Source of the DNA: Mobula hypostoma
Lineage: Eukaryota
NCBI RefSeq assembly: GCF_963921235.1
Contig: NC_086107.1
Location: 96,288,001 to 96,352,000 of the forward strand
Direction of reading: 5' to 3'
DNA: 64,000 nucleotides
A program made the translations under genes and the position numbers. Positions 1 to 37,848 of this stretch are shown piece after piece (the stretch's first letter is position 1; every line of letters begins with the position of its first letter). The notes under the pieces are model-generated. The model was not told the origin of the DNA, searched no databases, and saw only the letters and a list, made by a program, of their open reading frames with translations.

Positions 1-114
1 ACATATCAGAATGGGACTGGGATGTGGAATTAAAATTTGTGGCCACTGGGAGATCCTGCTTTCTCTGGCAGACAGAGCGTAGGTGTCAGCAAAGCGGTCT
101 CCCAGCCTGCGTCG
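1..114 (-). mobile_element. Penelope-like element GIY-YIG endonuclease fragment (runs off window start)
   Basis: Closely matches 7679-7793, which encodes the GIY-YIG C-terminus on the minus strand. Confidence 0.8.
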
Positions 115-1097: not shown

Positions 1098-4000
1098 TTT
1101 GGATCGGGATAACAGAGTGGTGTGGGAGCTGAAATTCTGAAGTAAGGCAGTTTTTTAAAAAACTTCTTCGAGTGCAAGAAGAAGGAGACTGCACAGGCGC
1201 GTGATGTAACAGGACAGAGTGGAGCGTTTAAAAAGGGGACCACCCTATACAGCGGGCAGCTGTCGGAGCGGGCAGCGCAGTGAGTGGTAGCAGAGTGTAG
1301 GGCTTTGGCTTCAACGGGCTTCGGCGGTGACGGGAAGAGGAAAGAGCGAGGAACCAACTCTTTGTTCCCCCACTCCCCTTGGCGAATCAGCCCGGACAGA
1401 CAGGATCAGCAGGGCTCACACAGCTAACGGTACGAACTAACAGTTTAAAAAGTTCATCTGTTTGGCAAGGTAAGTGGGTGAGTAGACTTATTATTTTTCC
1501 TGTTTCATTCCTGTAGAATTAGCTAGCATGCCTGCAGGGTTAGTGCTATGTTCAGGGTGTCAGATGTGGGAATCCTGCAAGACCTCCAGCCTCCCTGATG
1601 GCCACATCTGCGCCAGGTGCACCGAGATGCAGCTCCTCAGAGACCGTGTTAGGGATCTGGAGCTGCAGCTTGAGGACCTACTGCTTATCAGGGAAAGTGA
1701 AGAGGTGATAAACAGGAACTACAGGGAGGTAATCATCCCTAGGCTACAGGGGTCAGAAAATTGGGTGACTGTCAGGAGAGGGAAGGAAAATGCCCGGAGA
1801 GTGGAGAGCACACCTGTGGCTGTCCCCCTCCGCATCTTGTTCTGGATGCTGTTGAGGGGGATGACCTGACAGGGGACGCCCATAGTGACCGGGTCTCTGT
1901 CACTGAGCCTGGCGCTGTTGTGCAGGAGGGAAGGAGGGAGAAGAGGAATGCAGTAGTCATAGGGGATTCCATAGTCAGGGGAATGGACAGGAGATTCTGC
2001 GAGCCTGATAAGAGATACCCGCATGGTGTGTTGCCTCCCAGGTGCCAGGATACAGGATGTCTCGGATCGGGTCCAGACTATTCTGAAGGGAGGAGGGCGA
2101 GCAGCCAGTTGTCTTGGTACATGTTGATACCAATGACATAGATAGGATAAGGGAGGAGGTCTTGAAGAGAGATTTCTGGGAGTTAGGAAGGAAGCTGAGA
2201 AGCAGGACCTCCAGGGTAGTAATCTTGAGATTGCTACCTGTGCCATGTGCTAGCGAGGGCAAGAACAGTAGGATCAGGCAGATGAATGCGTGGCTGAGAC
2301 TGGAGCAGGGGGCAGGGCTTCAGATTCTTGGATCATTGGGATCTCTTCTGGGGGAAGTATGACCTGTTCAAAATAGACAGGTTACACCTGAACCTGAAGG
2401 GGACCAATGTCCTGGCGGGAAGGTTTAATAGAGCTATTAGGGAGGATTTAAACTAATTTGGCAGGGGGATGGGAACCGGAATGATAGAGCGGAGGAAGGT
2501 GAAAACAGAAATAAATCTAAGATATTGAGCAGTAAAGATGTCAGGAAAGATGGGCAGGTGATGGGGCAAATTTGCAGCCATTGGGACGAGTTGCAGTGCA
2601 ATAAAGTTGCAGTGAAATCAAAGCGAAAAGTACCAAATACTGGTCTTAAGGTGTTATACTTAAATGCACGCTGGCTAAAGGATGCATGTCTCTGGGAGCT
2701 GAACATCCAAGGATACACGGTGTATTGGAAGGATAGGAAGCTAAGCAGAGGGGGAGGTGTGACTTATTGGTAAGAAATGATATTAAATCATTAGAAAGAG
2801 GTGATATAGGATCGGAAGGTGCAGAATCTTTATGGGTTGAGCTAAGAAATCGAAGGGGTAAAAGGACCCTGATGGCAGTTATATATAGGCCTCCAAACAG
2901 CTGCAGTGATGTGGACTACAAATTACAACAGGAAATAGAAAAGGCTTGTCAGAAGGGCAGTGTTATGATAATTGTGGGGAACTTTAACATGTGAGTGGAT
3001 TGGGCAAATCAGGTCGGCACTGGATCTCAGAGAGAGAATTTGTAGAATGTCTGCGAGATGGCTTTTCAGAATAGCTTGTTGTTGAGCCCATTAGGGGATC
3101 GGCTGTACTGGATTGGGAGTAAAGGAAATTGTAGTGGCATGAGAGAGGAACTGGCCAAAGTTGACTGGAAAGGGACACTGGCGGGAAGGACGACAGAGCA
3201 GCAATGGCTGGAGTTTATGCGAGAAGTGAGGAAGGTGCAAGACAGGTATATTCCAAAAAAGAAGAAATTTTTGAATGGAAAAAGGATGCAACCGTGGCTG
3301 ACAAGAGAAGTCAAAGCCAAAGTTAAAGCAAAGGAGAGGGCATACAAGGAAGCAAAAATTAGTGGGAAGACAGAGCATTGGGAAGTTTTTAAAAGCTTAC
3401 AAAAGGAAACTAAGAAGGTCATTAAGAGGGAAAAGATTAACTATGAAAGGAAGCTAGCAAATAATATCAAAGAGGTTACTAAAAGCTTTTTCAAGTATCT
3501 AATGAGTAAAAGACAGGTGAGAGTAGATATAGGACCGATAGAAAATGATGCTGGAGAAATTGTAATGGGAGATAAGGAGATGGCGGAGGAACTGAACGAG
3601 TATTTTGCATCAGTCTTCACTGAGGAAGACATCAGCTGTATACCGGACACTCAAGAGTGGCAGGGAAGAGAAGTGTGCGCAGTCACAATTATGGCAGAGA
3701 AAGTACTCAGGAAGCTGAATAGTCTAAAGGTAGATTAATCTCCCAGACCAGATGGAATGCACCCTCGTGTTCTGAAGGAAATAGCTGTGGAGATTGTGGA
3801 AGCATTAGCGATGATCTTTCAAAAGTCGATAGATCCTGGCATGGTTCCAGAGGACTGGAAGATCGCAAATGTCACTCCACTATTTAAGAAGGAGGCAAGG
3901 AAGCAAAAAGGAAATTATAGACCTGTTAGCTTGACAGTCGATTGTCAAGGATGAGGTTACAGAGTACCTAGTGGTATATGACAAGATAGGCAGAACTCAG

Positions 4001-5870
4001 CGTGGTTTCCTTAAAGGAAAATCCTGCCTGACAAACCTATTACAATTTTTTGAGGAAATTACAAGTAGGCTAGACAAGGGAGATGCAGTGGATGTTGTAT
4101 ATTTGGATTTTCAGAAGGCCTTTGACAAGGTGCCACACGAGGCTACTTAACAAGAGCCCATGGAATTACGGGAAAGTTACAAACGTGTATGGAGCGTTGG
4201 CTGATTGGCAGGAAACCAGCGGGAATAAAGGGATCCTATTCTGGTTGGCTGACGGTTACCAGTGGTGTTCCACAGGGGTCCGTGTTGGGGCCGCTTCTTT
4301 TTACGTTGTACATCAACGATTTGGATTATGGAATAGATACTTTATACTTCATACTTTATTGTCACCAAACAATTGATACTAGAATGCACAATCATCACAG
4401 CGATATTTGATTCTGTGCTTCCCACTCCCTGGATTACAAATATTAAATATTTAAAAAAGTAAAAATTAGTAAATATTTAAAAACTAAATTATAAATCATA
4501 AATAGAAAATAGAAAAATGGAAAGTAAGGTAGTGCAAAAAAACTGAGAGGCAGGTCCGGATATTTGGAGGGTACGGCCCAGATCTGGGTCAGCAGTCTTA
4601 TCACAGTTGGAAAGAAGCTGTTCCCAAATCTGGCTGTATGAGTCTTCAAGCTCCTGAGCCTTCTCCCCAAGGGAAGAGGGACGAAAAGTGTGTTGGCTGG
4701 GTGGGTTGTGTCCTTGATTATCCTGGCAGCACTGCTCCGACAGTGAAAGTGAATCCACGGACAGAAGATTGGTTTGTGTGATGTGCTGCGCCGTGTTCAA
4801 GATCTGCAGCTTCTTTCGGTCTTGGACAGGACAACTTCCATAACAGGTTGTGATGCACCCTAGAAGAATGCTTTCTACTGTGCATCTATAAAAATTAGTG
4901 AAGGTTTTAGGGGACAGGCCAAATAGATGGCTTTGTAGCTAAGTTTGCTGATGATACGAAGATAGGTGGAGGGGCTGGTAATGCTGAGGAAATGGAGAGT
5001 CTGCAGAAAGACTTGGATAGATTGGAAGAATGGGCAAAGAAGTGGCAAATGAAATACAATGTTGGAAAGTGTATGGTTATGCACTTTGGCAGAAGAAATA
5101 AACGGGCAGACTATTATTTAAATGGGGAGAGAATTCAAAGTTCTGAGATGCAATGGGACTTGGGCGTCCTCGTACAGGATACCCTTAAGATTAACCTCCA
5201 GGTTGAGTCGGTAGTGAAAAAGGCGAATGCAATGTTGGCATTCATTTCTAGAGGAATAGAGTATAGGAGCAGGGATGTGATGTTGAGGCTCTATAAGGTG
5301 CTGGTGAGACCTCACTTGGAGTACTGTGGGCAGTTTTGGTCTCCTTATTTAAGAAAGGATGTGCTGACGTTGGAGAGGGTATAGAGAAGATTCACTAGAA
5401 TGATTCCAGGAATGAGAGGGTTAACATATGAGGAACGTTTGTCCGCTCTTGGACTGTATTCCTTGGCGTTTAGAAGAATGAGGGGAAACCTCATAGAAAC
5501 ATTTCAAATGTTGAAAGGCATGGACAGAGTGGATGTGGCAAAGTTGTTTCCCATGATGGGGGAGTCTAGAACAAGATGGCATGACTTAAGGATTGAAGGG
5601 TGCCCATTCAGAACAGAGATGTGAAGAAATTTTTTTAGCCAGAGGGTGGTGAATTTATGGAATTTGTTGCCACGGGCTGCAGTGGAGGCCAAGTCATTGG
5701 GTATATTTAAGGCAGAGATTGATAGGTATCTGAGTAGCCAGGGCATCAAAGGTTACGGTGAGAAGGTGGGGGAGTGGGACTAAATAGGAGAATGGATCAG
5801 CTCATGATAAAATGGTGGAGCAGACTCGATGGGCCGAATGGCCAACTTCTGCTCCTTTGTCTTATGGTCT
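1098..5870 (+). mobile_element. Near full-length CR1 LINE, degenerate
   Basis: ORF1 from 1528 with CxxC...CxxC, coiled coil and VVIGDSIVR (SGNH esterase). ORF2 has YLNAR, IYRPP, GVPQGSVLGPLLF, KFADDTK, RPHLEYC. TCTTATGGTCTT tail. CTTCT at both junctions (1093-1097, 5869-5873). Confidence 0.93.
4339..4921 (-). mobile_element. 5'-truncated Rex1/Babar-type LINE 3' end inserted in the CR1 RT
   Basis: Minus-strand GRRLRSLKTHTARFGNSFFPTVIRLL; AATAAA followed by a short tandem tail; TSD AATAGAT at 4332-4338 and 4922-4928; CR1 reads INDLDYGID|GFVAKFADD across the insertion. Confidence 0.85.
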
Positions 5871-7080
5871 TCTGAAAAGACATTTCTGGTGGCCCACCAT
5901 GGATGCTGACACTCGCTCCCTCGTCTCTGCCTGTTCCGTGTGTGCCCGCGGAAAAGCCTTCCATCGACCACCTGCTAGGTTACTTCATCCCCTACCTGTC
6001 CCTAGTCGCCCTTGGTCCCACATTGCTCTGGATTTTGTTACTGGACTACTCCCTTCACATGGTAACACTGCTGTACTCACCGTGGTGGACTGTTTCTCCA
6101 AAGCCGTGCACTTCATAGCCCTTCCCAAACTCCCTGCAGCCCATGAAACAGCCAACCTCCTTGTCCAACACGTCTTCTGCCTTCATAGAATTCCCTCTGA
6201 CATTGTTTCTGACCAGGGCCTCCAATTCATCTCTCAAGTCTGGAGATCCTTCTGTCAAGCCCTTGGAGCCTCAGTAAGTCTGTCTTCTGGTTTCCATCCA
6301 CAGACTAACGGTCAAATGGAACGAACAAACCAGGATTTGGAAGCAGCACTGCGCTGCATGTCCGCCAACAACCCGTCATCTTGGGGCACCCATCTCACTT
6401 GGGTGGAGTACGCCCACAATCCCTGCTCAGCACCGCCACCAGAATGTCTCCCTTTGAATGCTCCCTCAACTATCAACCCCCTCTGTTTCCTGCCCATGAA
6501 GATGACATTGCTGTGCCTTCAGTTCAGGCCCATCTACGCTGGTGCCACAATATCTGGAAGGGTGCACGCACGGTCCTGCTCCACTCAGCTGACCGCAACT
6601 GGAGGGCTGCCGATCTCTATCGAATTCCTGGGCCCAACTATCGGCCTGGTCAGAAGGTTTGGCTCCCTTCAAAAGACATCCCCCTCAAGAATGAACCCAA
6701 GAAACTCGCCCCTCATTACCTCGGACCATTCGAAATTGAGAGCATCATTAACCCCTCGGTGGTCAAACTCAAACTGCCCAGATCCATGCACATTCATTCC
6801 ACGTCTCCCAACTGAAACCTGTGTCTGTCAGCCCTTCGTGCCCTCCTGCTGAACCTCCTCCACCCGCCCAGATCATTGACACTACCCAACTTACACTGTC
6901 CGGCGAATACTGGATGTGTGCCGACGAGGCAGGGGTCTCCAGTACCTGGTTGATTGGGAGGGATATAGTCCTGAGGAGCGCACTTGGATTCCCCATTCCT
7001 TCATCTTGGACCCTTCCCTCATCCGAGATTTCCATCGAGACAATCCGGACAAGCCTGGTGGTTCACCTGGAGACTTCCAT
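5871..7080 (+). pseudogene. Gypsy integrase plus chromodomain, frameshifted
   Basis: ORFs 5812..6852, 6381..6815 and 6916..7119 carry rve DDE, GPF and chromo motifs. Confidence 0.88.
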
Positions 7081-7223
7081 TGGTGGGGGGAGGGGTACTG
7101 TCACGGTCCCGACCTTTAATTACGCAAACAACAGGAATTCTGCAGATGCTGGAAATTCAAGCAACACACATTAAAGTTGCTGGTGAACGCAGCAGGCCAG
7201 GCGGCATCTCTAGGAAGAGGTAC

Positions 7224-7259
7224 AGTCGACGTTTCAGGCCGATACCCTTCGTCAGGACT
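7224..7259 (-). ncRNA. Minimal type I hammerhead ribozyme
   Basis: Minus strand reads AGTC-CTGACGA-AGG-GTATCGG-CCT-GAAA-CGTC-GACT. Confidence 0.82.
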
Positions 7260-8039
7260 AACTGAAGGAAGAGTTAGTAAGAGATTTGAAAGTGGGAGGG
7301 GGAGGGGGAGATCGAAAATGATAGGAGAAGACAGGAGGAGGAGGAATGGAGCCAAGAGCTGGACAGGTGATTGGCAAAAGGGATATGAGAGGATCATGAG
7401 ACAGGAGGTTCGGGGAGAAAGACGGGGGGGTGGGAAACCAGAAGATGGGCAAGGCGTATAGTCAGAGGGACAGAGGGAGAAAAAAGGAGAGAGAGAGAAA
7501 GAATGTGTGTATAAAAATAAATAATGGATGGGGTATGAGGGGGAGGTGGGGCATTAGCGGAAGTTAGAGAAGTCGATGTTCATGCCATCAGGTTGGAGGC
7601 TACCCAGATGGAATATAAGGTGTTGTTCCTCCAACCTGAGTGTGGCCTCATCTTTACAGTAGAGGAGGCTGTGGATAGACATGTCAGAATGGGAATGGGA
7701 TGTGGAATTAAAATGTGTGGCCACTGGGAGATCCTGCTTTTTCTGGCGGACAGAGCGTAGGTGTTCAGCTAAGCGGTCTCCCGGTCTGCGTCGGGTCTCG
7801 CCAATATATAGAAGGCCACATCGGGAGAACTGGACGCAGTATATCACCCCAGCCGACTCACAGGTGAAGTGTCGTCTCACCTGGAAGGAACCTCCTGTCC
7901 CATGATCCTCTCATATCCCCTTTGCCAATCACCTGTCCAGCTCTTGGCTCCATCCCTCCCCCTCCTGTCTTCTCCTATCATTTTTGATCTTCCCCTCCCC
8001 CTCCCACTTTCAAATCTCTTACTAACTCTTCCTTCAGTT

Positions 8040-8075
8040 AGTCCTGACGAAGGGTCTCGGCCTGAAACGTCGACT
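8040..8075 (+). ncRNA. Minimal type I hammerhead ribozyme
   Basis: AGTC-CTGACGA-AGG-GTCTCGG-CCT-GAAA-CGTC-GACT: CUGAnGA and GAAA core, stem I AGTC/GACT, predicted cleavage after GUC at 8071. Confidence 0.85.
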
Positions 8076-8859
8076 GTACCTCTTCCTAGAGATGCTGCCT
8101 GGCCTGCTGTGTTCACCAGCAACTTTGATGTGTGTTGCCCGACCTTTAATTCCCCATTTTCTTTCTCCTAATTTCCTTTGATGACAGCACACCTGGTTTT
8201 CATCAAGACCTGAAGTATAAGAACCCCGGCTTTGCACCCACTAGTTGCCAGATCGTTGGTTTTGCCAGTGTGGTATTTAATGTTTCCCAGCTGCTTAGGA
8301 ATGTGTGTTCTAAGTTCTACTCCAGTTCCGAGGTTTACCTGTGAAACTCAGTCTCTCTGTGTCAAGATAAGTATTCTGTATTCCTTCAGCACCGAGGTTT
8401 ACCTGTGTAGCTCCGTCTCTCTGTGCTAAGAAAAGTTTTGTCTGCCGCTTTCCTTTCTGCGCTCCATGTCAAGATAAGTTCTGCCTGCGTCCTGCTTTCC
8501 TGATCTCCCTCCTGTTTGCCGTTTGCTCACGCCGGCGTCTGCATCCTAACTCAATCTCTGTGCCTGTGTCCTGCATTTGGGTTCACCTCGTTTGTTGCAA
8601 CATCTTTGGCACAGGAATGATGGTTGCTGCCTTGAAAACCCAGAAGATTTGAGAAGTTCGAGCCAAGTGTCGCTCCCTGGAAGAAGGATCATCAGCTGGG
8701 CTGAGTTGGAGAGAATGATGGAGCTCAGAGGCAGGAAGATTGATTCAATGTCTCAAACCCCTGTCCATCCCCACTAACTTCATATAGGGGTGGAGCCTGG
8801 GTCACCAAGCTGTCAGAATTATGAATCCTCCCCACCAGGGGGACCCGAGACCTTAGTTA

Positions 8860-11200
8860 TGTAACTATCACTTGGTGGTTAGGGAGGTGGGAACATGCAA
8901 AAAGTTAATACTCTGTTGGACACAGATGCTGAAACGTCAGTTATAAGTGGATCAGTATCAGCTGTCCGTTGCAAATAGAGGGGTTTAGGAGGGAAGGTAG
9001 GAGAAGCACGGGGAACGATGGGCTGAATGGTTCCTGGGTACCGACCACCATTGGAAGCTGGAGTACTGATAGCTCCATTACCTGAACATATAATTGGAAC
9101 GGATGTACTGCGGGGACAGAGAGTGTAGACCAGTTTGGGAAAGTTCACACGTGGCATTTTAAAAGCAAGTGTTTTCATGGGATTAATGAAGTGGGAGTCC
9201 CTTACAACACAGCTACCTGATGCCATGGTTGGTCTGAAGCAGTATTGAATATGAGGACATTCGGAGGTCTCAGATACCATCACACAGTTGTTAAAAGAAG
9301 GTGTGATCAGGCAAGCAACCTCGGGGTAGACCAGTTCTGTTGGCCAGTCAAGAAATCAGACAGCAGCGGGAGGATGACCATTGATTTATCACCAGCTAAG
9401 TATTCACACTTCTCCATTATCTGCTGCTGTCCTGCCTGCACATCTGAAAACTGGTTTACGGACAGCCAGCTCGGCTCCAGTCGCTGGAAAGCCAGTGTCC
9501 AGGGGTGGACAGCTGTTGCTGCTGCTGCTGAACCTCGTCACAGAACGTTTTGCAGCAGCAGGGAGAAGGCATTTCCAGCCAGGGGATTGAACTGGTAGTA
9601 GTCACCTCGCAGCATAAAACGGATCAGCTGCACATATACACAGACTCTTGGGCAGAGGCAATTGGGATGTCTGTGTGGTTGGCAGAGTGGCAGATAGAGG
9701 GAAAGCCGTTGTGGGGGTCAGCCACTCTGGGGACAAGATCTGGTTTTCTTGCAGATGCCCAGCATGGAGATCCCCCCCTCTGTCTACTACCTATAACCAT
9801 ATAACAATATAACACCTTTAATAGTGAAGTGGAACAGTTAGCATGAGTAAACTAGATTAACGCCCCAGAATACTGTGAGATGGGGCAATGGGCACATCAA
9901 ATGCTAGTCATCTGCAGAAGGGTGTGCATGGTACAATTGAGGGGGCTAAGTGACGAGGTGCCACGGGGATCAGTGCTGGGTCCATTGATATTTGTCATCC
10001 GTATCAATGATCTGGGGGTGTAATGTGGTTAACTGGATGGGCACCAAGATTGGGGATGTAGTGAAGTGGACAGCAAGGAAGACTATCATGGCTTGCAGTG
10101 GCATGTAGACCAGCTGGAAAAATGGGCTGAAAATGGCAGATGGCATTTAATGCAGACAACTGTGAGGTGTCGCACTCTGGTAGGACCAATCTGGGTAGGT
10201 CATACACAATCAACTGTAGGTTTTATACAAAAATATAGGTCTGTAATTTTCTGAAAGTGACATCACAGGTTGATAGGGTTGTAAAGAAAGCTTTTGGCTC
10301 ACTGGCCTTCATAAATCAAAGTATCGAGTACAGGATATGGGAGATTATGTTGAAGTTGTATAAGACATTTGTGAACCCTAATTAGGAGAGTTGTGCGCGG
10401 TTTTGATTACCTACCTACAGGAAAGATGTAAATAAGGTTGAAAGAGTGCAGTAAAAATTTACAAGGATGTGCCAGGACTGGAGGACCTGAGTTATAAGGA
10501 AAGATTGAATATGTTAGGACTATACTCCTTGGAGCTTAGAAGATTGAGGGGAGATTTGATAGGGGTACACAACATTATGAAGGGTATAGATAGGGTAAAT
10601 GTAAACAAACAGACTTTTCCACTGAGGCTGTGTGGGACTGCAACTAGAGGTCATGGGTTAAGGGTGAAAGGTGAAATGTTTAAGGGATGCATGAAGGGAA
10701 ACTTCTTCAGTCAGAGGGTGGTGGTGAGAGTGTGGAACAAGCTGCCAGCACAAGTGGTGCATGCGAGCTCGATTTCAATGCTGAAGAGAAGTTTGGAGTG
10801 GATAGGTACATGGGTGGTAGAGGTATGGAGGGCTGTGGTCCTGTGGAGGGCAGGTTGATGGGAGTAGACAGTTTAAATGATGGACCAGAGGGCCTGTTCC
10901 TGTGCTGTACTTTTCATATGCCAGGTATGGCAGATTGATTATACCAGACCCCTGCCAGAGTAGCAATGATTTAAATACTTGTAGACACCTATTCAGGTTC
11001 CAACAGCAATTTCTAAAGCATTCACTGGCTGTATCGTGTACCCTATCCCCTGCCCCCCAAGCATCAGGACTGATCGAAAGGATGAATGGACTTTTAAAAC
11101 AACAGATTCATTTATGGACACCACACCACACCTTGACTGTACTATCCCAAGTTTTGTACAACCTGAACAACAGACCTTTATTCCAAGGATCACTGAAGAC
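8860..11200 (+). mobile_element. Degenerate class III (ERV-L-like) endogenous retrovirus pro-pol remnant, split by a CR1 fragment
   Basis: GGGNMQKVNTLLDTDAETSVISG (protease, ~8883-8951); WPVKKSDSSGRMTID (RT N-terminus); NWFTDS and HIYTDSWA...GKPLWG (RNase H); WQIDYTRPLP (~10928) and PQASGLIERMNGLLK (integrase). Confidence 0.72.
9950..10918 (+). mobile_element. 5'-truncated CR1 3' fragment
   Basis: VPRGSVLGPL and MPGLEDLSYKERLNMLGLYSLELRRLRGDLI; CR1-type 3' UTR GGGCCTGTT...GTGCTGTA. Confidence 0.88.
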
Positions 11201-14544: not shown

Positions 14545-15380
14545 GTCACATCCTCAATTGTTGCTTTGGTCACCTACCAACAGGAAAGATATCAGTAAGC
14601 TTGAAAGAGTGCAGAGAATATTTACAAGGATGTTGTTGTGTGAATGAAGTCACCGGAGAAAATTACTGGTCGATACCAAGCAGCTTCTTTATTCGACAAA
14701 ACCAGGTACACCAGGCATCATACAGAGATGCTTTCAGTGGAAAGGTCTGCTGGCCCAGCTCCATATTTTATGTACCAAACATCAAATGACAACTCCATAT
14801 TTACAATGTATGGCCAATGCTTTCTTTGAAACTACATACAACCTTCACACCTCCTGAATCACATCCACACCACAGACATCCAAATGAATTTCAATTCAAT
14901 TCAGCATTGTTGGGACTGGGATTCACAGATTTTATGGTCCCATTATTCAGAGCTGCACTCCCAATTAAATGTACAATACATTTTCAGATGTGAAGACTGG
15001 TAGCCAAAGTCAATTGTTAAATGTATATGTCCTAACCCAAAAAATGACTCCAGCACAAGGATGTTGCCGGGACTTGAGGACCTGAGTTATAGGGAAAGAT
15101 TGAATAGGTTGGACTTATTTGCTACAGAATTTTGTAGGAGAATGAGGGGAGATTTGACCGAGGTATACAAAATTATGAAGTGTATAGACAAGAGTAAGTG
15201 CAAGCAGGCTTTTCCCACTGAGGCTGGGTGAGACTAGAACTAGAGGTCACGGGTTAGGGGTGAAACTCTTCAGGGGAAAATAAAAAGAATTTCTTCACTC
15301 AGGGTGGTGAGAGTAGGAAGTGAGCTGCCAGTGGAAGTAGTGGATGCGGGCTGAATTGCAACGTCAGAGAAACTTGGATT
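14545..15380 (+). mobile_element. CR1 3' fragment interrupted by a solo LTR
   Basis: Reads LERVQRIFTR|MLPGLEDLSYRERLNRL across the 14631-15057 insertion. Confidence 0.8.
14631..15057 (-). repeat. Solo LTR
   Basis: TGT...ACA termini with 4 bp TSD AGGA (14627-14630, 15058-15061); minus-strand AATAAA; similar to 23070-23479. Confidence 0.7.
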
Positions 15381-16282: not shown

Positions 16283-17194
16283 ACACGACTCCCTTGTCCA
16301 TTCGTCCCCCCCCCCGCCCCATCCCTTCCCACCGATTTCCCTCCCGGCACTTATCATTGTAAGTGGAACAAGTGCTACACATGCCCTTACACTTCCTCCC
16401 TCACCACCATTCAGGGCCCCAGACAGTCCTTCCAGGTGAGGCGACACTTCACCTGTGAGTTAGCTGGGATGATATACTGCGTCCGCTGCTCCCGATGCGG
16501 CCTATATATTGGCGAGACCCGACACAGGCTGGGAGACTGTTTCGCTGAAGACCTACGCCCTGTCCGCCAGAAAAAGCAGGATCTCATAGTGGCCAAATAT
16601 TTTAATTTCACGTCCCATTCCCATTTTGATATGTCTATCCATGGCCTCCTCTACTGTAAAGATGAAGACACACTCAGGTTGGAGGAACAACACCTTATAT
16701 TCCGTCTGTGTAGCCTCCAACCTGATGGCATGAACATTAACTTCTCTAACTTCCGTTAATGCCCCACCTCCCCCTCGTACCCCATCCATTATTTATTATT
16801 ATTATTATTATATACATATATATATTTTTCTCTTTTTCTCCCTCTGTCCCTCTCACTATACTCCCTGCCCATCCTCTGGGATTCCCCTCTCTTTCTTTCT
16901 TTCTCCCTGGGCCTCCTGTCCCATGATCCTCTCATATCCCTTTTGCCAATCACCTGTCCAGCTCTTGGCTCCATCCCTCCCGCTCCTGTCTTCTCCTGTC
17001 ATTTTGGATCTCCCCCTCCCCCTCCCACTTTCAAATCTCTTACTAGCTCTTCTTTCAGTTAGTCCTGACGAAGGGTCTCGGCCTGAAACGTCGACTGTAC
17101 CTCTTCCTAGAGATGCTGTCTGGCCTGCTGCGTTCACCAGCAACTTTTAAGTGTGTTGCTTGAAATTCCAGCATCTACAGATTTCCTCATGCAT
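16283..17194 (+). mobile_element. Penelope-like element 3' part (GIY-YIG plus pseudo-LTR)
   Basis: ORF 16202..16759 with CKWNKCYTC and IYCVRCSRCGLYIGET; pLTR closely similar to 7889-8137; possible TSD ACATGC(A/T)TCTCT at 16271 and 17195. Confidence 0.9.
17061..17096 (+). ncRNA. Minimal type I hammerhead ribozyme
   Basis: Same sequence as 8040-8075. Confidence 0.85.
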
Positions 17195-20384: not shown

Positions 20385-21084
20385 CCTTGCCCCTTTTATT
20401 AATATAGTTATGCAATATTAAGTATTTGTCTAAATTCGATTTTGGGGCAGTTTACCTTCTTTTTTGTCGAGAGACCTTTTCCTTACGCCGCCATTCCCTT
20501 TTCCCCATTTTCCTTTTTTTAATTGCCTTGGTTTTTGTAAGTTTCCCAATCCTCCAACTTCCCACTAATTTTTGCTCTATTATATGCCGTCACTTCTGCT
20601 TTTAAGTTTGCTTTGATTTCCCTTGTCTGTCACAGTTGTGTCATCCTGCCTTTCAAATACTTCTTCATCTTTGGGATCTATTTGCTCTGTGCCTTCTGAA
20701 TTGCTCCCAGATGCTCCAGCTATTGCTGCCCTGGCTTCATTCCTGCTACTGCACCCTCGCAATCAACTTTGGCCAGCTCCCCTCCCATGCATCCAATTCC
20801 CTTTACTCCATTGTAGTACTGATACATTTGACTTTAGCTTTTCCCTCTCAAATTGCAGGATGAATTTTATCATATTATCATCATTGCCTCATAAAGGATT
20901 CCTTTACCTTAAGCTCACTAATCAATTCCGGTTCATTGCACAACACCCAGTCCAGAATAGCTGATCTGCTCGCGGGCTCAACCATGAGCTGCTCTTAAAA
21001 AGTCATTTTGTATGTATCCTATAAATCCCCTCTTTTGGGATACAGCACCAAACTGCATGTTCAAATCCCCAGGACAGCTGCAAT

Positions 21085-22235
21085 GATGAGAAAGTAAGGA
21101 GGCATAGGATCCAAGGGGACCTTGCTTTGTGGATCCAGAACTGGCTTGCCCACAGAAGGCAAAAAGTGGTTGCAGACGGGTCATATTCTGCATGGAGGTC
21201 AGTGACCAGTGGTATGCCTCAGGAATCTGTTCTGGGAAGCCTTCTCTTTGTGATTTATTTATTTATTTATTCTCTCTCTTTTTTTTACAAATGACCTCGA
21301 TGAGGAAGTGGAGGGATGGATTAGTAAATTTGCTGATGACATGAAGGTTGGGGTTGTTGTGGATACTGTGGAGGGTAGTCAGAGGTTACAGCGGTACATT
21401 GATAGGATGCAAAACTGGGCAGAGAAGTGGCAGATGGAGTTCAACCCAGGTAAGTGTGAGGTAGTTCATTTTGGTAGGTCAAATATGATGGTAGAATATA
21501 GTATTAATGGTAAGACTCTTGGCAGTGTGGAGGATCAGATCTTGGGGTTCGAGTCCATAGGACACTCAAAGCTGGTACGCAGATTGACTCTGTGGTTAAG
21601 AAGGCATACGGTGCATTGGCATTCATCAACTGTGGGATTGAGTTGAAGAGCCGAGAGGTAATGTTGCAGCTATACAGGACCCTGGTCAGACCCCACTTGA
21701 AGTACTGTGCTCAGTTCTGGTCACCTCACTACAGAAGGATGTGGAAACTATAGAAGGGGTGTAGAGGAGATTTACAAGAATGTTGCCTGAATTGGGGAAC
21801 ATGGCTTTTGAGAATAGGTTGAGTGAACTTGGCTTTTTCTCCTTGGAGTGGCAGAGGATGAGGTGACCTGATAGAGGTGTATAAGATGAGAGGCATTGAT
21901 CCTGCGGATAGTCAGAGGCTTTTCCCAAGGCAGAAATGGGTAAAATGAGAGGGCACAGTTTTCAGGTGCTTGGAAGTAAGTACAGAGGAGATGTCAGGGT
22001 TAAGTTTTTTTTTAACGCAGAAAATGGTGAGTGCATGGAATGGGCTGCGAGCAACAATTGTGGAGGAGGATACAATAGGGTCTTTTAAGAGACTGTTGGA
22101 TAGGTAAATAGAGCTTAGAAAAATAGAGGGCTACAAGTAACCCTAGGTAATTTTTTAAGTAAGTACATGTTCGGCAGAGCATTGTGGACCGTAGGGCCTG
22201 TATTGTGCTGTATGTGTTCCGTGTTCTATGTTCTA
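21085..22235 (+). mobile_element. 5'-truncated CR1 3' fragment
   Basis: SKFADDMKVG, WAEKWQMEFN; (GTTCTAT)n-like tail at about 22222-22235. Confidence 0.88.
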
Positions 22236-22396
22236 AACACTGCCCTTTTTACATGCCTTTTCTATCTCCTGTTGTAAATTGTATCCCACCTCTTGGCTAT
22301 AGTTCAAAGGCCTGTATATAACTCTCTTTTTCCGCTTGTAATTTCTTAACTCTACCCACAAAGATTTTATATCTTCTGATCCTATGTCACCTCTAA

Positions 22397-22486
22397 GGAA
22401 CACACATAAAAGTTGCTGGTGAACGCAGCAGGCCAGGCAGCATCTCTAGGAAGAGGTGCAGTCAACGTTTCAGGCCGAGACCCTTC
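22397..22486 (-). mobile_element. ~90 bp PLE pseudo-LTR tail with a truncated hammerhead
   Basis: Matches 7163-7254; flanked by GTCACCTCTAA at 22386-22396 and 22487-22497. Confidence 0.8.
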
Positions 22487-23069
22487 GTCACCTCTAAAGA
22501 TTTGATTTCATTTTTTACCAACAGAGCCCTGCGCCCCCCTCTGCCTACCAGTCTATTCTTTCAATACAGTGTATGCTTGTATGTTAAGCTCCCAACTATA
22601 ATCATCTTTCAGCCACAACTCAGTGATGTCCACAACATCATACATTCCAATCTCTAAATGCACTACAAAATTATTTACCTTATTCCGTTTACTGCATGCA
22701 TTGAAATAGGTAACACGTTCAGCCCAGTATCGGTCTTCCTTTTTGATTTTGTCCCCTTTTTACACTGCAAATCATTCCACTGTTTATAAATTTACCCTAT
22801 CATCTGCCCATCCTTCCTGAATGTCTCACTATCCATGGTCAATGATGGTAAACCAATTGCCCTACCATTTTGGTTCCTACTGCCCTGCCAAATTAGTTTA
22901 AACCAACCCCAACAGCACAAGCAAACCTGCCTGCAAGGATGTTGATTGCCCCCCTTGTGTTCATCTGTAACCTGTCCCTTTTGTACAAGTCACACCTTCC
23001 CCAGAAGAGATTGTAATGATCCAGAAATCTGAAACCCTGCCCCCTGCATCAGATTCTTAGCCACACATT

Positions 23070-25150
23070 TGTATTCGTGTGAACAAAGTCACCATAGAGA
23101 CTTGGTGGAGATCAAATAGTGTCTTTATTTGACAAAATGAGATACAGAAAACATCATATTGAGACCATTTCAGAGGAAGAGACCTGCTTGAAACAACACT
23201 ACATGACATTTTATCTGCTAAAGATTAGAGGCCAATTTCATATTTACAATGCTTCCTTTGAATTACACACAGCCTTCATACCAGACATCTAAATGTTGAA
23301 TTTTAATCAGCATTGTGTGGTCAGTAAACTAAACGTGATTCATGGGTCTTAGGAACCCATTGTTCAGAGTTGCATTTGAAATTTGCTCTACATTCCACAT
23401 TTCAGATTTGAAGATTGGTGGCTGAAGTTAGTTGCTGGAACTATTTGCTATATGTGCTAACCCAAAAAATACCCTACCAGAACCTTCTCTTGGCCCTTCT
23501 GTACATCATAAATTTGAACCAGGAAAGGCCAACCATGAGGAGGATCTACTCAAATAGGGTAGTGGAAATTCCCTACTTCGGAATCCCTCCCAATTACTGT
23601 GTGCATCCACATCTACCCTACCACCCTTAACAGCTACCTACAAGACACTAAGCAGAGAGATTGTTCCAGAAATTCGAACTACAGTCTTTAAAAATGTAGG
23701 GTCTCTTTCCACGGTCACCAGCAAAGTAAAATGTATCAGGCTTACAGGCCCTCTCATCGATGCACAGGAAGGGGGTGAGGTGGCCTCTATTTGAATGTCT
23801 GCAAGGACCTCTCCTAGTGGCACCCCCTTCCAAACTGTCCAGTCAATTGCTGACACAAGCGCTGAAATGGCCCAGCTCATTTGTGTTCACTCCCCATTCA
23901 GGCTGGGGATGACTGCCATGTGCAATTTCTTCTCTTTCTCAGTCTGCTATACCAGTGAAGTTGTGGAACCTGATGTCTCTGCTGTCACTTGGATCCCTCC
24001 CCATCTATTTTCCCTAGTATCTTTTCTATTCTATACTGTACAAATAATCATCTCCTTTCAGCAACCAGCCTTCATTACAGAGTACCGTTACCATGACACT
24101 TTAACATGCTATTTATGGCTTTCTGTCATGCTCTCGGTATCTTCTGCCTTCTATTTGTTGTGGGTCTGCTATAATCCGGTCTGGTGCAGCCGGCTGGTGT
24201 TCACCACTTAGGTTCTCTGCAATGACACTGTTACTGGGTATACTTGATCTTCTGTTCTGTCTGTGGGTGTGACAAGAAGGTAAGTTGTACAGTTTAACTA
24301 GTGTCCAGTGTTTCCACTGACTGCCTCGTCGAGTCTGCACACTTTTGTCATTTGTCAAAAGTACTATCTGTGGTCCTATCCATCTAGGAGCAAACCCTGC
24401 ATTTTCAAACCCTCACCATGACTTGGTCACCTGGCTGTGGGAGACCTTTCCTTCTGACTCTCTGATCAGCAATGTGCTGCTGTTGTTTGGCTTGGTCCTT
24501 CAACATTGGTTACAAATGTCTTTCACATACTGTGTCATTGAACCTCTGTAAGGCCCAGATTATTACCCCATTAGGGAGTCGCATTGCTAGCACCATCACT
24601 AATTTGTAGGGGCAGAGACCCAACGTATGGTTTTGGCTTGCTCACAATCTCAGGATTCCTGGTTATACACCCAGCCATTTCCTTCATCAAGTCCCACCCT
24701 CTCCATGGTCTCCAGTCTCTGTACATCTGAGACCAATCTGCTTCCCTTCCAGAGGTGATTCCTTCACTCCAATATCATCTTCCTGTTCTATTTCCATTTG
24801 GCACTCGTGTGCCTGCCCCTCCGTCAGGATGGTGCTTGCGGGATTCATTCCAGTGTCCCTAACCCTCATTAGTGACGTCCGTGGGGATGAGAGCTGCCTC
24901 CCAAGTTGCCCTTCTGCTGTTGGTAACTGCTCTCAGTCTCCCCGTATTCAGGAGTCCTACAATGCGATGGGGTGTGTTGTACGAGTTGTTCCATCATTAC
25001 CTCAGTTTCCCTTGCTCACACTGCCCATGCTGCGCAGTCTAAAGCTGCCATGCAGCGGGGAAGTCTTGTTATAACAGGTGTCTGTTTCATTCAATAATAT
25101 GCCACTAACTTTGTCCTCCTATGGTCCTGTACCACCACTCTGTTGTAATA
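23070..25150 (-). mobile_element. LTR (about 23070-23479) plus decayed internal region of an LTR retrotransposon
   Basis: LTR resembles 14631-15057 (GTGTGAA..AAGTCACC, CTTTATT, CTAACCCAAAAAAT); minus-strand purine tract next to 23480; internal blocks shared with 12030-12520. Confidence 0.5.
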
Positions 25151-27416: not shown

Positions 27417-29004
27417 CAGGTTTCCTCCGCCATCTGAAGGTACAGCGTTCCTAGGAAACGATTCGTAAGCCGGAATGTCGGAAAGTGAAGAAGCAGTTAC
27501 CATTTATTTTTATGGGAAAAATTTGTGAGCGTTTGCAGACCCAAAAAATAACCTACCAAATCATGCCAAATAACACATAAAACCTAAAATAACAGTAACA
27601 TATAGTAAAAGCAGGAATGATATGATAAATACACAATCTATATAAAGTAGAAATACTTTTCTACAATCATTGCCGCACTGTTCTCCGTAGCGAAAATCTC
27701 ACGCAAGCGCTCTCAGCAGAAACACGGTGCAAGTGCTCTTGGCAGAAACACTCTCTCCAGTAACCTTTAAGCTATGAAGCTGCCAAATCATACCAAATAA
27801 CACATAAAAATACACAGCCTATATAAAGTAGAAATAATGTATGTACAGTGTAGAATCACTTACCGGAATTGGGAAGTCAGCGCCGAGCACACTGATGATG
27901 ATGTGTTAGGCTGAGTCATTGGAAGCTGGGGTGGTGTAGTGGTGTAGTGGTCCCTGACCTCCGGGCAGCAAACTGATACTGATCCACGTAGAATACAGTG
28001 GTAGCCAGGATGCACCCAGCGCATCTTTAAGAAAAAAGCTGAAATAAACAAGCTAATTAATTAGGTGCTGCCCGGCACATAATTGTCGGCCCAGATCAGA
28101 GGTGGCGCAATCGGCAATCGCCTCTGATCTGGGCAGACATTTACGTGCCAGGCTGCACCTAATTAATTAGGATGTTTATTTCGTTTTTTTCCTTAAAGAT
28201 ATGTTGGGTGTGTCCCGGCTACTGCTGCATTCTCCGCGGCCCGGGGGTTGGGGTGGTGGGACACTGGGGTGTCATCTCGTCGTCTGTCCTTGATGTCGAA
28301 GGTCGAGGCTGGTTGTCTGCTGTGGCTGATGTGGGAGGCTTGAAAAATGACAGTATGCTTGACTGCTTAGCCTTGTGTATTTTTCTATCATACATTTCTT
28401 TGTAAGCACTCAAACCATCCTGCAAATATGCCCTAAACCTACGTAAGTCGTACTTTTCTGCAATCATTGCAGCAAAAGTCTCATGCAGTTGCTTCATGTT
28501 CAGTTCCTGGAGGACTTCACTTTCGGTCCGTTCGCTACTGCATTCGGTTTCGATTGTTATCCTTTCCTCTTCCAAATGCATCAGCTCTTCATCTATCAGT
28601 TCTTGGCCATGAGATGCCAAAACCTCTTCGACATCATCTTCGCCAACTTCCACAACCCAAACTCACTTTGTCCTTACTTCATTCACCACAATCGAAATGC
28701 TTGATTATGTCTAGTTTTACACCTTTACGAGCTCTTTTAGGCTTTTCCGATACCTTAGAACTCATCTTGTTAACAGCTGTACACAGGCACGTGTTTAAGC
28801 AATGCCAGCTAGAATGCAGTTCCTGGGAGGAGCTTGGCTGCTCGGGGGACGCGCTGCCTTTTTTCACACGCCGCCTTTTATCGCACACTGCCTTTTTTCA
28901 TAACAGTGAAAACACCTTCTGTTAGCGAAAACAGGTAACTAATGTAGGTCTTTCGTAACAGAGAGGTTTCTTAAAGCAAACATTCGAAAAGTGGGGGACA
29001 CCTG
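27417..29004 (-). mobile_element. Non-autonomous Tigger/pogo-like DNA transposon
   Basis: TA TSD (27415-16, 29005-06); imperfect TIRs CAGGTTTCCTCCGC / GTGGGGGACACCTG; HTH start MSSKVSEKPKRARKGVKLDIIKHFD joined to C-terminal DVEEVLASHGQELIDEEL...KQSSILSFFK; no DDE core seen. Confidence 0.88.
27991..28232. repeat. Long imperfect inverted repeat (~110 bp arms) inside the Tigger-like element
   Basis: 27991-28102 pairs with 28120-28232 (e.g. CTAATTAATTAGGTGC...CCCAGATCAGAGG / CCTCTGATCTGGG...GCACCTAATTAATTAG). Confidence 0.88.
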
Positions 29005-32636: not shown

Positions 32637-33530
32637 GAGTCAGCTGGTCGTTGCCGGCATACTTGTCCTATGTATCAAGGTTCTTCCAGGAGAACGCCTT
32701 TGACCACAGGGCCATCAGGCAGTGGTCGGCACGTAGTGTCCTACAGGCACTGCAGGAGAAGGACGTGATGGACACAGTGGCTTGGTTCCCTGAGCAGACC
32801 GTCCAGTTCATCTGGAAAAATGCCTCATCGCCAGATCTCACCAACAGGCACCAAGACCTCGCCTGGCTGGCGGTGAGAGGGGCCCTCCCAGTCAGAGCCC
32901 TCCTGTACGCCTGGAACGTCTTCTCCGCACCCCACTGCCCACGGGAGGACTGCAGTGAGGAGCAGTCTGTGACCCACCTCTTCGCACACTGTCATTTCGC
33001 AAAGAGGGTGTGGAGGAGGATGGACGAGATAGTGTCACGTTTCATCCCCAGCAGCTGCGTAACAGAGGACTCTCTGATCTACGGGCTGTTCACGGGGACG
33101 CACACGGAGACCAACATCCAGTGCTGCTGGCAGATCATCAACTCGGTGAAAGACGCTCTTTGGTTGGCCTGAAACTTGATGATCTACCAGCACATGGAGA
33201 TGTCCGTGGGAGAATGCTGCCGACTGGCACATTCTCAGCTGCAGGAGTACGTGCTGAGGGACGCACTGAAACTCGGTCAGCCACCGCAAGGGCCCGTTGG
33301 GAAAGGACCACGGTATAGGTTTCTTCACCCACGGGAGTGAGAAGGGTCGGGTGGCGGGGAGTATACGCCTCAACAATGATGTGGTACAATGATCTGGAAT
33401 GCCACGTGGGTGGCCATAAATATGGATATGTACTGACTTTAATGGAAACGTATGTAAAGAATGGAAAGTTATTGAATACTTTATTGTATATATTTATTTT
33501 TGAATAAAGTATATTTTGAAATTAAAAAAA
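32637..33530 (+). mobile_element. 5'-truncated Tx1-clade LINE 3' end
   Basis: DLAWLAVRGALPVR...CPREDC...HLFAHC (zf-RVT-like); AATAAA at ~33503 and A-tail. Confidence 0.88.
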
Positions 33531-36500
33531 CATTGAGCGTCATCAAGTATAATTTCTGTTCATACCAGATCGGAAGGCGGAGGAGAACAGTTCGCGCTGA
33601 CGCAGTGGTGGACCCTAATGCTGATTGGCCTCCAATCTAACACCCCATACCAGTGACGACAGCAGTGTGGAAGATGGCATCAGAGAGCAGTGCATTGGCT
33701 TGAAGCCCGGGGATCAATAACACTGTCAGGCTGACAGTGCGAGACCAGAACGGGGGCACCGGCTTCACCCGAGAGACCTTCATCCGGAAGGTCTTGATGG
33801 AGTGCTGCAGATTTACGCCCGACGACATCTGTTGCTTCCAGGATTTCGCGGGCTTCTTAGATGTCACCTTCCGGCAGGCTGCAGGGTGGCAGAAGCTGTA
33901 CCAGCAGCTTCAGCTGAAGGGGACAGAGGCACCGCTGTCGCTGCTGAAAGCACAGGCCCTCTTTGCGACAGCTACCCAGCAGGAACGGACAATCATGCTC
34001 CAGATGTTCAACCCGTACGTGCAAGTGGTGGACGTCCTTACAATCCTCGCTCGGTATGTGGAGAACGTAGGAACTCCAGCGGACGTGAAGGACAGACTGG
34101 GAATCTGGAAAGCAAGCGGCAGGTCAAGGTGAAGCTGAGGTTGGACTCCAGCGGCGGCGTCATCCACCCCCCCTCCGTCTTCGCCATCGGAGGGAACCGA
34201 GGGTACACGGTCTACGCGAGGCAACCCAGGGTGTGCCGAAACTGCGGCAAGGCGGGGCACATCGCAGCCCAGTGCAGGATGGTGATGTGCAAGAACTGTA
34301 AAACCGAGGGCCACCTGACCAAAGACTGCACGCAGGCCAAGTCCTGCAACCTTTGCGAACAGGCTGGCCACCTGTACAGAGCCTGCCCAGAGCGTGGAGG
34401 CACCTACGCACAGGCGACCAGGGGAGGTGCTGGCACCGAAACGGCCCAGGCAGGTTTGGACGTACCCGCCAGCGCTGCAGACGAGGCACCCGACAGGGCG
34501 GACGATGAGACCAGGGAGGAAGGTGCAAGCACCCCAAAGCTCGCCACCCCCGTGCAGACCTTCCAGGACCAGCCAAACGACGAGCAGGAGTCCATGGAGG
34601 AGGGGAGAGCCGAGGCGGAAACCGAATGGAAGGTCATGAAACGGAAAAAGACCCAAAAGGCGGCGGCCAAGCGACAGAAGGCGGAGCAACACAAGAAAAG
34701 GGCAGGGAACCACACAGCCTCTGGTACCCTGTCCTTTTCAGAGGAGGAAGGAGTTGGGGGAGGCCAGCAGCCCCAGCGGAAGAAGCGGCTGGCAGAACAG
34801 GTGGAGAGGAGGAGAGAGGAGGGGGAAAGTCTGCTGGCCACCCCCCAAGTACAGGAGGCGGAGAGCAGCAGACACACCGAGCTCCGGGAATCCGGGAGCA
34901 GAGCCACGGCTGGCACCCAGCAGCCGGAAGGCGAAGCAGCCCGGGAAGTCAACAACTCCCCTGGGCCCAGAACCAGAACTGCCACACCCGGGGGAGTACT
35001 ATCTGCAGTACCTGAGCCCACAGGAGGTGGAAAACTTCACAAAGGCGGTGGGCATGAAGGCTCAGGACTGCAAGGGTGAAGACGGACAGCAGCCGAAATA
35101 AAGGACTTACAAAGACGGCAGACCTTAAATTGGTGTGCTTGAACGTGCGCAGTTTGAAGAGTACTGGGCGATGCGTCAGCACGCTCCAGTACCTGGACAC
35201 TGTAAAGGCCGACGTGACCTTCCTCCAGGAGTGCGAACTACCATACCTCCGTAAATACCAGAGGTGGTCACGGTGGTGGAAAAAACGGTTTCTCTGTGTG
35301 GTCGGGAAGCAACGATTGTCGCGCTTCCGGCCTGGGGATTCTGCTGCGGGGAGGCAACTTCTCAATCACCCAAGTTAAAGAGGTGGTTGCGGGGCGCCTC
35401 CTGGTAGCAGACGTCAAATACCGGGGCACTCCGCTCCGGCTGATCAACGTGTGTGCCTCCCCCGTACGGAGCGAGCGGCTGGCCATCTTCGAGCAGCTCC
35501 CACAGCTGCTGGTGACGTCCCAGCCGGTCGTTCTGGCCGGAGACTTCAACTGCACCATTGATGCAGCTGGAGGATCCGGCAGCGCCGACGGCAGGCTGGA
35601 CAGTACCTCCAGACTCCTGAGGGAAATGGTGAAGACAGCCAAGCTGCGCGACGCCTTTGGCACCCCACAGGTGGAGCACAGCCACAAGCCACCTGGACAC
35701 GATCGGACGGCTCAGCCCGCTCCCGGATTGACTTCCTCTTCCTGTCAGAGCCCCTCACGGTCAGGTCCACCGACATCACGCCGGTGTTCTTCTCTGACCA
35801 CTGCCTTCTGAGAGCCACCTGTCTCTTACGGGAGGACCAGAAGGCAGGCAGGGGGACGTGGAAGCTGAATGTTAAGTTGCTGACCCTGGACGAGCTGACA
35901 GGCTCCATCCGTTCCTTTGGGTCGGGTAAGACTCAGGGAAGCGACAGCTTACCGGCTGAGTTGTACTCGGCTCTGTGGAACTGGATGGGCCCAGACCTGC
36001 TGGAAGTGTACAATGCTATGCTTCTGGCTGGCAGCATGTCAGAGTCCATGAGGAAGAACATCACCCTCATCTACAAGCAGAAGGGGGAAAGGGAGGACAT
36101 TAGAAATTGGAGACCCATCTCTCTCCTGAATGTGGACTACAAGATCCTGTCTAAGGCTATCGCCAACAGGGTCAAGTCTGCTCTGGGACAGGTGATCCAC
36201 CCGGACCAACCCTGTGCTGTACCGGGCAGGAAGATCTCAGACAGGTTCGCGCTGCTAAGGGACACCATCGCCTACGTGCAGGACAGGGGGGTGGACGCCT
36301 GCCTGGTCAGCTTGGACCAGGAGAAAGCCTTCGACAGGATATCGCACACGTACATGGCGGACTTGCTCTCCAAAGTGGGATTTGGGGAGGGAATCCGGAA
36401 TTGGATCAGACTGCTCTACACAGACATCCGTAGTGCAGTCCAGGTCAACGGTTGGGAAACAGACAGCTTCCCCATCAGGCCTGGAGTCAGGCAGGGCTGT

Positions 36501-37083
36501 CCACTTTCCCTTGTCTTGTTTGTCTGCTGCATAGAACCCTTTGCGGAAGCCATCAGGAGGGATGAGGGCATAAGAGGGGTGACGCTGCCAGGAAGTGGTG
36601 GAACCCAAGCAAAAACCTCCCTGTACATGGACGACGTCACCGTCTTCCGCTCTGATCCGAGGTCAGTTCGCAGGTTGATTAGCATCTGCAAACAGTTCAA
36701 GCTAGCATCGGGGGCCAGGGTCAACCGCACGAAGAGCGAAGCCATGCTCTTCGGCAAATGGCCCAACCGATCCCGTGTCCCCTTCGCCATCAGGTCTGAC
36801 CATGTGAATGTGTTGGGGATCTGGTTTGGAGGGGCTGCCGAGTGCAACAGGAACTGGCAGGAGCGGACTGCCAAGGTGAAACAGAAACTGGGACTGTGGG
36901 GAGGGCGCTCCCTGTCGATAACGGGCAAGAACCTGGTCATCAGGTGTGAGGTGCTCTCAGGGCTGCTGTACTTGGTGCAAGTGTGGCCCGTCCCCTGCTC
37001 CTACAGCTCGGAAATCACCCAAGCTGTTTTCAGATTCGTCTGGGGATCCAAGATGGAGCGGGTGAGATGGACCATCATGCACA

Positions 37084-37730
37084 GGAATTGGATCAAACTG
37101 CTCTACACAGACATCTGCAGCGCAGACAAGATCAACAGATGGGAAACAGATTGCTTCCCCATCAAGTCTGGAGTCAGGCAGGGCTGCCATCTCTCCTGTC
37201 TTGTTTGTATGCTGCATAGAACCCTTTGCTGAAGCCATCAGGAGGGATGAGGGCATAAGAGGGGTGACGCTGCCAGGCAGTGGAGGGGCCCAAGTGAAAA
37301 CCTCCCTGTACCTGGACAACGTCACCGTCTTCTGTTATGATCCAAGGTCAGTTCGTAGGCTGATTAGCATCCGTGAACAGTTTGAGCTGGCGTTAGGGGC
37401 CAGGGTCACCCGCACGAAGAGCAAAGCCTTGCTCTTCGGCAACTGGCCTGACCAATCCAGCATCCCCTTCACTATCAGGTCTGATCACATGAAGGTATTG
37501 TGGATCTAGTTAGTGGAGGCTGAGGCGTGCAATAACAATTGGCTGGAGCAGCCTGCCAAGGTAAAATAGAAATTGGGACTGTGGGGAGAGTGCTCCCTAT
37601 CGATAACGGGGAAGAACCTAGTCATCAGGTGTGAGGTGCTCTCAGGGCTGCTGTACTTGGCGCAAGTGTGGCCCGTCCCCCACTCCTGCAGCTTGGAAAT
37701 TACCCGAACCTTCCTCATATTCATCTGGGT
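37084..37730 (+). repeat. Diverged direct duplicate of the Tx1 RT segment 36397-37045
   Basis: Both start GGAATTGGATCA.ACTGCTCTACACAGACATC and run colinearly to TTC.TCTGGG. Confidence 0.88.
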
Positions 37731-37848
37731 AATCAAAGATGTTTAGCTTTGTTAATCAATTATTTGGTAATTTAATTCCTTATTGTACATATTGACATGT
37801 TGACTTGATTACTTTAATGTATTTTTTTTGTTGATCTTAATAATAATC

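Follow-up and report, generated by a model that had tools for sequence, protein, structure and literature searches.

A fold-back Penelope-like insertion at the start of a decaying Gypsy LTR in Mobula hypostoma, very probably dead on arrival

In the 64,000-nt stretch of contig NC_086107.1 of Mobula hypostoma analyzed here (the window), a fold-back insert resides at the start of the 3' LTR of a decaying Gypsy element. It very probably represents one insertion, dead on arrival, of a Penelope-like element (PLE) of the Neptune/Nematis type, with an inversion that arose from the insertion process. The locus most likely does nothing, since its hammerheads would be locked in the duplex of the fold-back RNA; at most, it would deliver double-stranded RNA if it were read through. 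The features of the insert, its host and two related copies are as follows.

6880-7074, plus strand: chromodomain ending the integrase of the host Gypsy element (PF00385, E 1.7e-12)
7082-7098, plus strand: putative polypurine tract before the 3' LTR
7099-7121, plus strand: opening 23 bp of the host 3' LTR, with the target site inside; putative boundary, set at the TG behind the purine tract
7108-7121, plus strand: left copy of the target site duplication (TSD), ending in ATT
7122-7160, minus strand: PLE "tail" of 39 nt, outside the inverted repeat and at the left end only
7161-7411, minus strand: left arm, the 3' terminal (pLTR-type) region of the main copy
7224-7259, minus strand: minimal type I hammerhead motif; cleavage predicted after 7228
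7412-7556, minus strand: stop codon, then the low-complexity first part of the 3' untranslated region
7557-7889, minus strand: 5'-truncated remnant of a GIY-YIG endonuclease; start, linker and reverse transcriptase (RT) all missing
7888-7889, no strand: inversion junction, a 2-nt microhomology common to endonuclease and arm
7888-8137, plus strand: right arm, a second copy of the 3' terminal region in inverse orientation and without the tail
8040-8075, plus strand: minimal type I hammerhead motif; cleavage predicted after 8071
8138-8151, plus strand: right copy of the TSD
8152-8602, plus strand: rest of the host LTR, end approximate; multi-copy in four of four sequencing runs
16322-17187, plus strand: sister copy without inverted arm, 88% identical over 767 nt, with CX4CxxC linker and most of the tail
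22386-22497, minus strand: tail-less 3' fragment of about 90 nt with its own 11-bp TSD

The 14-mer that is identical at 7108-7121 and 8138-8151 has no third occurrence in the 64,000-nt window, and the chance of such a flanking match is about 2e-6. The perfect 14-bp TSD claimed in a preliminary description of the locus is thus confirmed, with a length of 13-14 bp because the first base of the 14-mer also prolongs the right arm. The inverted arms of about 250 bp noted in the same description also hold up. At 7161-7411 and 7888-8138 they measure 251 nt, are 96% complementary with ten mismatches and no gaps, and lie 476 nt apart. On the minus strand, the order is 250 nt of antisense 3' region, the end of the endonuclease, the sense 3' region and the 39-nt tail. 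Both ends of the insert are element 3' ends that face outward, and the tail is present on the left one alone. The insert can be described as a 768-nt minus-strand copy joined via a 2-nt microhomology to a 250-nt plus-strand copy, and no perfect palindrome was found at the inversion junction. Two of these features, the one-sided tail at 7122-7160 and the microhomology at 7888-7889, go beyond the preliminary description. The tail is largely shared with the sister copy, which ends near 17187. Overall, the insert has the layout of endonuclease-positive PLEs, i.e., direct or inverted pLTRs, an optional tail of 30-40 bp and a TSD.

In Gypsy elements, a polypurine tract lies ahead of the 3' LTR. The host follows the order known for chromodomain Gypsy elements, namely RNase H (225-971), integrase (rve and Integrase_H2C2, both upstream of the chromodomain), chromodomain, purine tract and LTR, the LTR ends being putative. 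That the insert lies 23 bp inside a Gypsy LTR stands, given an LTR start at 7099 as indicated by the purine tract and TG. No second LTR was found in the window, and the 5' LTR lies beyond it. The host is marked by stops and frame breaks, and two sequences interrupt it: a PLE fragment at 1-114, in the pol region, and a LINE block of about 4.7 kb at approximately 1130-5870. An influence of the LTR on transcription of the insert, which had been suggested, is unlikely, because the TATA-like box at 8216-8220, the sole such word found in 8152-8700, is located downstream of the insert and faces away from it, and because the host is broken. The host LTR also contains imperfect tandem repeats of about 64 nt (8320-8479), and a matching 66-nt joint that goes back was present in three of four runs of public contigs. 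The block at approximately 1130-5870 is LINE-like (endonuclease/RT) and nested in the integrase region of the Gypsy element; related pieces recur at 10400-10780, 14560-15360, 20500-23500 and 60500-61640. Further repeats of the window comprise an imperfect 256-nt palindrome unrelated to the PLE (27984-28239, 78% self-complementary), possibly a miniature inverted-repeat element, a tandem duplication of about 690 nt (36397-37741, 85%) and a dispersed repeat of about 745 nt (32638-33378 and 43910-44654, 84%).

The preliminary description placed a GIY-YIG fragment between the arms. This is confirmed by an open frame of 110 amino acids (7886 to 7557, minus strand) that matches PF01541 just at the cut-off (E 1.2e-4; 22.7 bits versus 22.6). 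Among 24 longer homologues, the best five all stem from rays and share 78-91% identity with the insert. The nearest is P0001 from Mobula hypostoma itself (91%), and P0002 and P0004 originate from Hypanus sabinus (85% and 80%). A PLE-type RT is missing from the truncated insert but present in relatives with 80-91% identity (YIDD in P0001 and P0004). In all five relatives checked of the 24 found, RT sequence and a CX4CxxC linker precede the endonuclease, and GIY-YIG is C-terminal. The linker is also encoded in the sister copy, while the insert breaks off ahead of it. In the CCHH motif of the insert, phenylalanine replaces the first cysteine, whereas relatives and sister copy keep both cysteines; we read this exchange as decay. 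A CX2-5CxxC linker in front of GIY-YIG is the mark of Neptune and Nematis and is missing in Penelope and Poseidon, according to the excerpted text of PMC8557442. Because relatives and sister copy carry this linker, the insert classifies by sequence as an endonuclease-positive PLE of the Neptune/Nematis type. Membership in Penelope/Poseidon was ruled out by the zinc finger in the linker of the relatives. Neptune is favoured over Nematis on the single ground that Neptune has been reported across vertebrates. In sum, the identification as a PLE with inverted pLTR-type arms and minimal hammerheads is upheld; the family may already have a name in Repbase or Dfam. Three ray or skate gene models, P0003, P0005 and P0020, are labelled kinase-domain protein, mucin-2 and neuromedin-U receptor and contain the endonuclease of this family, probably due to annotation read-through into PLE copies.

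One core-intact minimal hammerhead had been reported per arm (7224-7259, minus; 8040-8075, plus). As motifs, i.e., by match to the published description of minimal hammerhead ribozymes (min-HHRs), both are confirmed, with CUGANGA, GAAA and GUC boxes as well as stems I and II in place, while Rfam yielded no matches at E<=5 across 6500-9000. The conserved G10.1-C11.1 pair is replaced: T occupies position 8063 and the equivalent site of the left arm, and stem II closes with a G-U (or A-U) pair. Position 8063 is C in 26-66% of contig depth. When six short pieces were folded, two 43-nt pieces formed stems I and II, and none was clearly more stable than shuffled sequences except a 141-nt piece (z -2.2). 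For RNA of the full insert, about 255 long-range pairs are predicted on either strand (MFE -654.5 and -629.2 kcal/mol), so the expected long double-stranded stem would form if the insert were transcribed. In the predicted fold, the hammerhead lies wholly inside the duplex and stem I has a probability of 0. Forcing the ribozyme fold would cost 69.6 kcal/mol on either strand, compared with 13.9 when this copy is folded with the arm removed and 12.9 in the case of the sister copy. Each transcript would carry one hammerhead motif in sense only. In the available excerpts of PMC4209133, single min-HHRs do not cleave in vitro, dimers cleave little, and min-HHRs without helix III need a partner. The hammerhead of an Anolis PLE cleaved only with protein and was dispensable for insertion (PMC11167929, in excerpts). 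With the motif predicted to be buried in the duplex, lone min-HHRs reported not to cleave and one sense motif per transcript, the case for self-cleavage by the hammerheads of the insert is weak. The proposal of a self-processing mini-element is not supported, given the fully paired motif, the lack of in vitro cleavage by single min-HHRs (PMC4209133) and the occurrence of the same motif at 17061-17096 in the non-inverted sister copy. As part of the 3' region of the family, the hammerheads came along as passengers. As a general caution, a hammerhead motif within an inverted arm is unlikely to cleave.

Besides the sister copy, the window contains further members of the family. The end of the tail-less fragment at 22386-22497 falls within 3 nt of the end point of the right arm; this fragment breaks off within the hammerhead, where 4 nt match the target. 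A long broken copy at 46847-48781 (plus strand) extends from RT to endonuclease, belongs to a more distant subfamily of the same PLE type (59% to P0001) and carries, near 48701, a hammerhead-like motif that has decayed. Fragments of the family's endonuclease also lie at 46046-46333 (plus) and 1-114 (minus).

Public contigs from four of the 24 runs found, under three species labels, were placed on 7420-8700. The listing covered 15 joints out of 562, 24 loose ends out of 2871 and 32 pieces out of 355,378. No RNA run was listed with the sequence, and the 'RNA?' labels of runs are guesses. Summed contig depth, which is not a copy number, was three to six orders of magnitude higher for the PLE part than for the flanking bin at the end and shows that the PLE family is very abundant. 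Endonuclease-to-arm joints, which have the geometry of our locus, numbered six among the 15 listed of 562. Their breakpoints were six other positions, and every one was seen in a single contig from a single run; the joints were flagged weak with short sides of 22-28 letters, and lend weak support to inversions in the family being variable and one-off. A further observation is the joint 7697 to 7891 (run X6, one contig), in which the arm starts nearly as at our locus and the endonuclease is joined elsewhere; an arm start near 7891 is a possible breakpoint hot spot. Contigs reaching the junction often run on into ordinary family sequence (132, 120 and 76 at 7889; 75 and 48 at 7891). None of the 32 pieces listed of 355,378 bridges the junction at 7888/7889, which is colinear with the query and cannot appear as a joint, and there is no second copy of the junction within the window. 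At two sites, 7890 and 7985, the left and the right arm alike deviate from the letter most common in the family. At the latter, in a CpG context, the family mostly has G (four of four runs), the left arm C and the right arm T. Identity amounts to 237/247 between the arms and to 234/247 and 236/247 between the arms and the sister copy. Eight of the ten arm mismatches are C/T in the sense strand, and an A-to-G excess is absent; a history of RNA editing was ruled out for this mostly C/T decay. Three collection matches (one from genome_contigs, two from metagenome_contigs), each over <=22 nt, were dismissed as chance, and another collection scan gave no match.

For the origin of the inversion, we propose double-strand priming, a mechanism to which we give an even chance and whose biochemistry comes from a Poseidon element, i.e., another clade than that of the insert. 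The RT-endonuclease would cut both target strands 13-14 nt apart, and each 3' overhang would prime cDNA synthesis on element RNA. One cDNA would begin at an outer RT start site and keep the tail, and the other would begin at an inner site and lack it. Both would stop early, and the 768-nt and 250-nt products would be joined at the microhomology. Neutral decay followed the insertion. Two templates, or a tandem or re-used RNA, would be required, since both cDNAs span the same 250 nt. According to excerpts of PMC11167929, the Anolis PLE protein cuts and extends both strands, starts reverse transcription at two sites bracketing the tail, prefers ATT and was modelled as a dimer. At our target, ATT is found for the top-strand cut only. 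The independent tail-less copy at 22386-22497 ends at nearly the same base as the right arm, which counts in favour of this account. The departures from the family letter common to both arms fit one template lineage, and arms about as distant from each other as from the sister copy would also be compatible with separate templates of similar age. A literature search without most subscription papers found no relevant paper on twin priming applied to PLEs or on PLEs in shark or ray genomes.

Alternatively, the inversion of the same dead insertion could stem from an antisense or tandem template on which the cDNA primed itself or switched templates. Self-priming on an antisense template is favoured in the excerpts of PMC3846280 for head-to-head PLE inversions with junction palindromes. 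Our junction, however, lacks a perfect palindrome, the arms are 476 nt apart, and a tail on one end alone fits two RT start sites. We regard this route as unlikely, though it is the main rival of double-strand priming.

A different reading, compatible with a dead insertion, concerns what the locus does. Read through from an upstream Gypsy LTR or within a host intron, it could feed siRNAs directed against the abundant family. The roughly 255 predicted long-range pairs include perfect runs of up to 64 bp, and as 80 of 230 possible 21-mers are perfectly paired, the double-stranded RNA would be a fair Dicer substrate. Furthermore, transgenic flies are reported to have siRNAs that match inverted Penelope regions (PMC3681739, in excerpts). 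Yet no promoter facing the insert was found in the window, the host is interrupted at 1-114 and approximately 1130-5870, and nothing sets this copy apart among very many, which leaves a role as siRNA source improbable.

Two readings are less plausible still. In one, the locus is a non-autonomous mini-element of fold-back form. It would be copied whole, either by the PLE machinery or as a passenger in the LTRs of some Gypsy sub-lineage, and self-cleavage would set the ends of its RNA. The start of a 3' LTR is the part copied into both daughter LTRs, which counts in favour of such a unit, as do the family's 3' cis region at both ends and the joint 7697 to 7891, where another arm begins at about the same place. 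Published excerpts add that pLTR-flanked cargo can be moved in trans (PMC3846280) and that hammerhead retrozymes have been proposed as PLE derivatives (bioRxiv 2026.07.22.740005). Against it, the junction is without a second copy in the window, and many contigs at 7889 and 7891 continue into ordinary family sequence; no listed piece of 32 bridges the junction, although this is not a proper test. Moreover, the hammerheads are buried, an editing signature is absent, the Gypsy host is broken, and reverse transcription through a 250-bp stem would be unfavourable. In the other reading, which we rate equally low, the fold-back goes back to two insertions independent of each other, or to an inversion or conversion at a later time. 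An arm-to-arm distance resembling that to another copy and the density of the family in the window fit this idea, but the unit as a whole lies within one TSD, nothing of it remains past the right arm, and the arms depart from the family letter at common sites.

An assembly or library fold-back artefact is scarcely conceivable: PLE inversions are hard to assemble (PMC8557442, in excerpts) and no listed contig bridges the junction, but 10 of the 251 arm sites show differences whose spectrum resembles decay, the unit is flanked by the TSD, and the LTR, which goes on to either side, is matched exactly by two pieces of 239 and 242 nt in run X1.

A single locus of this kind carries little weight, its form being textbook for PLEs and its family abundant; it would matter more if the junction were multi-copy or a dominant source of siRNAs. 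Its value is that of a clean example of the unexplained PLE inversion step, and the excerpted text of PMC8557442 calls features of the PLE cycle still undefined. We tentatively suggest, at somewhat less than even chance, that copies like this one record how PLEs invert, i.e., by priming from both strands of a staggered cut on two templates, use of the two RT start sites around the tail and joining at microhomology. A very abundant ray family could allow this question to be tested by a junction census.

L1 elements undergo twin-priming inversions with an inverted 5' part, a TSD and junction microhomology, and their two halves stem from one RNA and do not overlap. The insert shares the inverted 5' part, the TSD and the microhomology, but its halves repeat the same 250 nt. 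Among other known systems, non-LTR retrozymes (bioRxiv 2026.07.22.740005, in excerpts) are likewise short, non-autonomous, hammerhead-bearing and PLE-related. They form head-to-tail tandems permitting dimeric cleavage, whereas the insert is a head-to-head single unit with a coding remnant; membership was rejected on the inverted arms and a unit without direct repeat nearby. With the min-HHRs of metazoan PLEs (Cervera and de la Pena 2014, PMC4209133, in excerpts), the insert has in common the conserved boxes, a stem I of 4-5 bp, the missing helix III loop, the palindromic CG at 15.2-16.2 and the arrangement as an opposite-strand pair. It differs in closing stem II with G-U or A-U instead of the conserved G10.1-C11.1, and the spacing of the pair, 780 bp, is slightly above the 100-700 bp reported there for opposite-strand pairs. 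The Poseidon element PAc of Anolis (Frangieh 2024, PMC11167929, in excerpts) resembles the insert in a tail between two end positions, ATT at one cut and a hammerhead near the 3' end; it belongs to another clade, in which the linker finger is missing, and no reading frame was identified at the hammerhead of the insert. Like Neptune/Nematis-clade PLEs, the relatives and the sister copy at 16322 present RT (relatives), CX4CxxC and GIY-YIG in order; the insert differs in that it ends before the linker and that its target is no microsatellite. Canonical PLE insertions come closest. They consist of an inverted 5'-truncated copy with a 30-40 bp tail at one end (Craig 2021, PMC8557442), and rotifer examples show inverted pLTRs, 8-10 bp TSDs and microhomology 5' joins (Arkhipova 2013, PMC3846280), both as far as excerpted. 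The insert agrees with them in 5' truncation, inverted terminal repeat, one-end tail, TSD, microhomology join and C-terminal GIY-YIG. It departs from them in being very short, in lacking RT, a direct upstream pLTR and a junction palindrome, and in a TSD of 13-14 bp rather than 8-10 bp. Its form is already known, that of a textbook PLE insertion.
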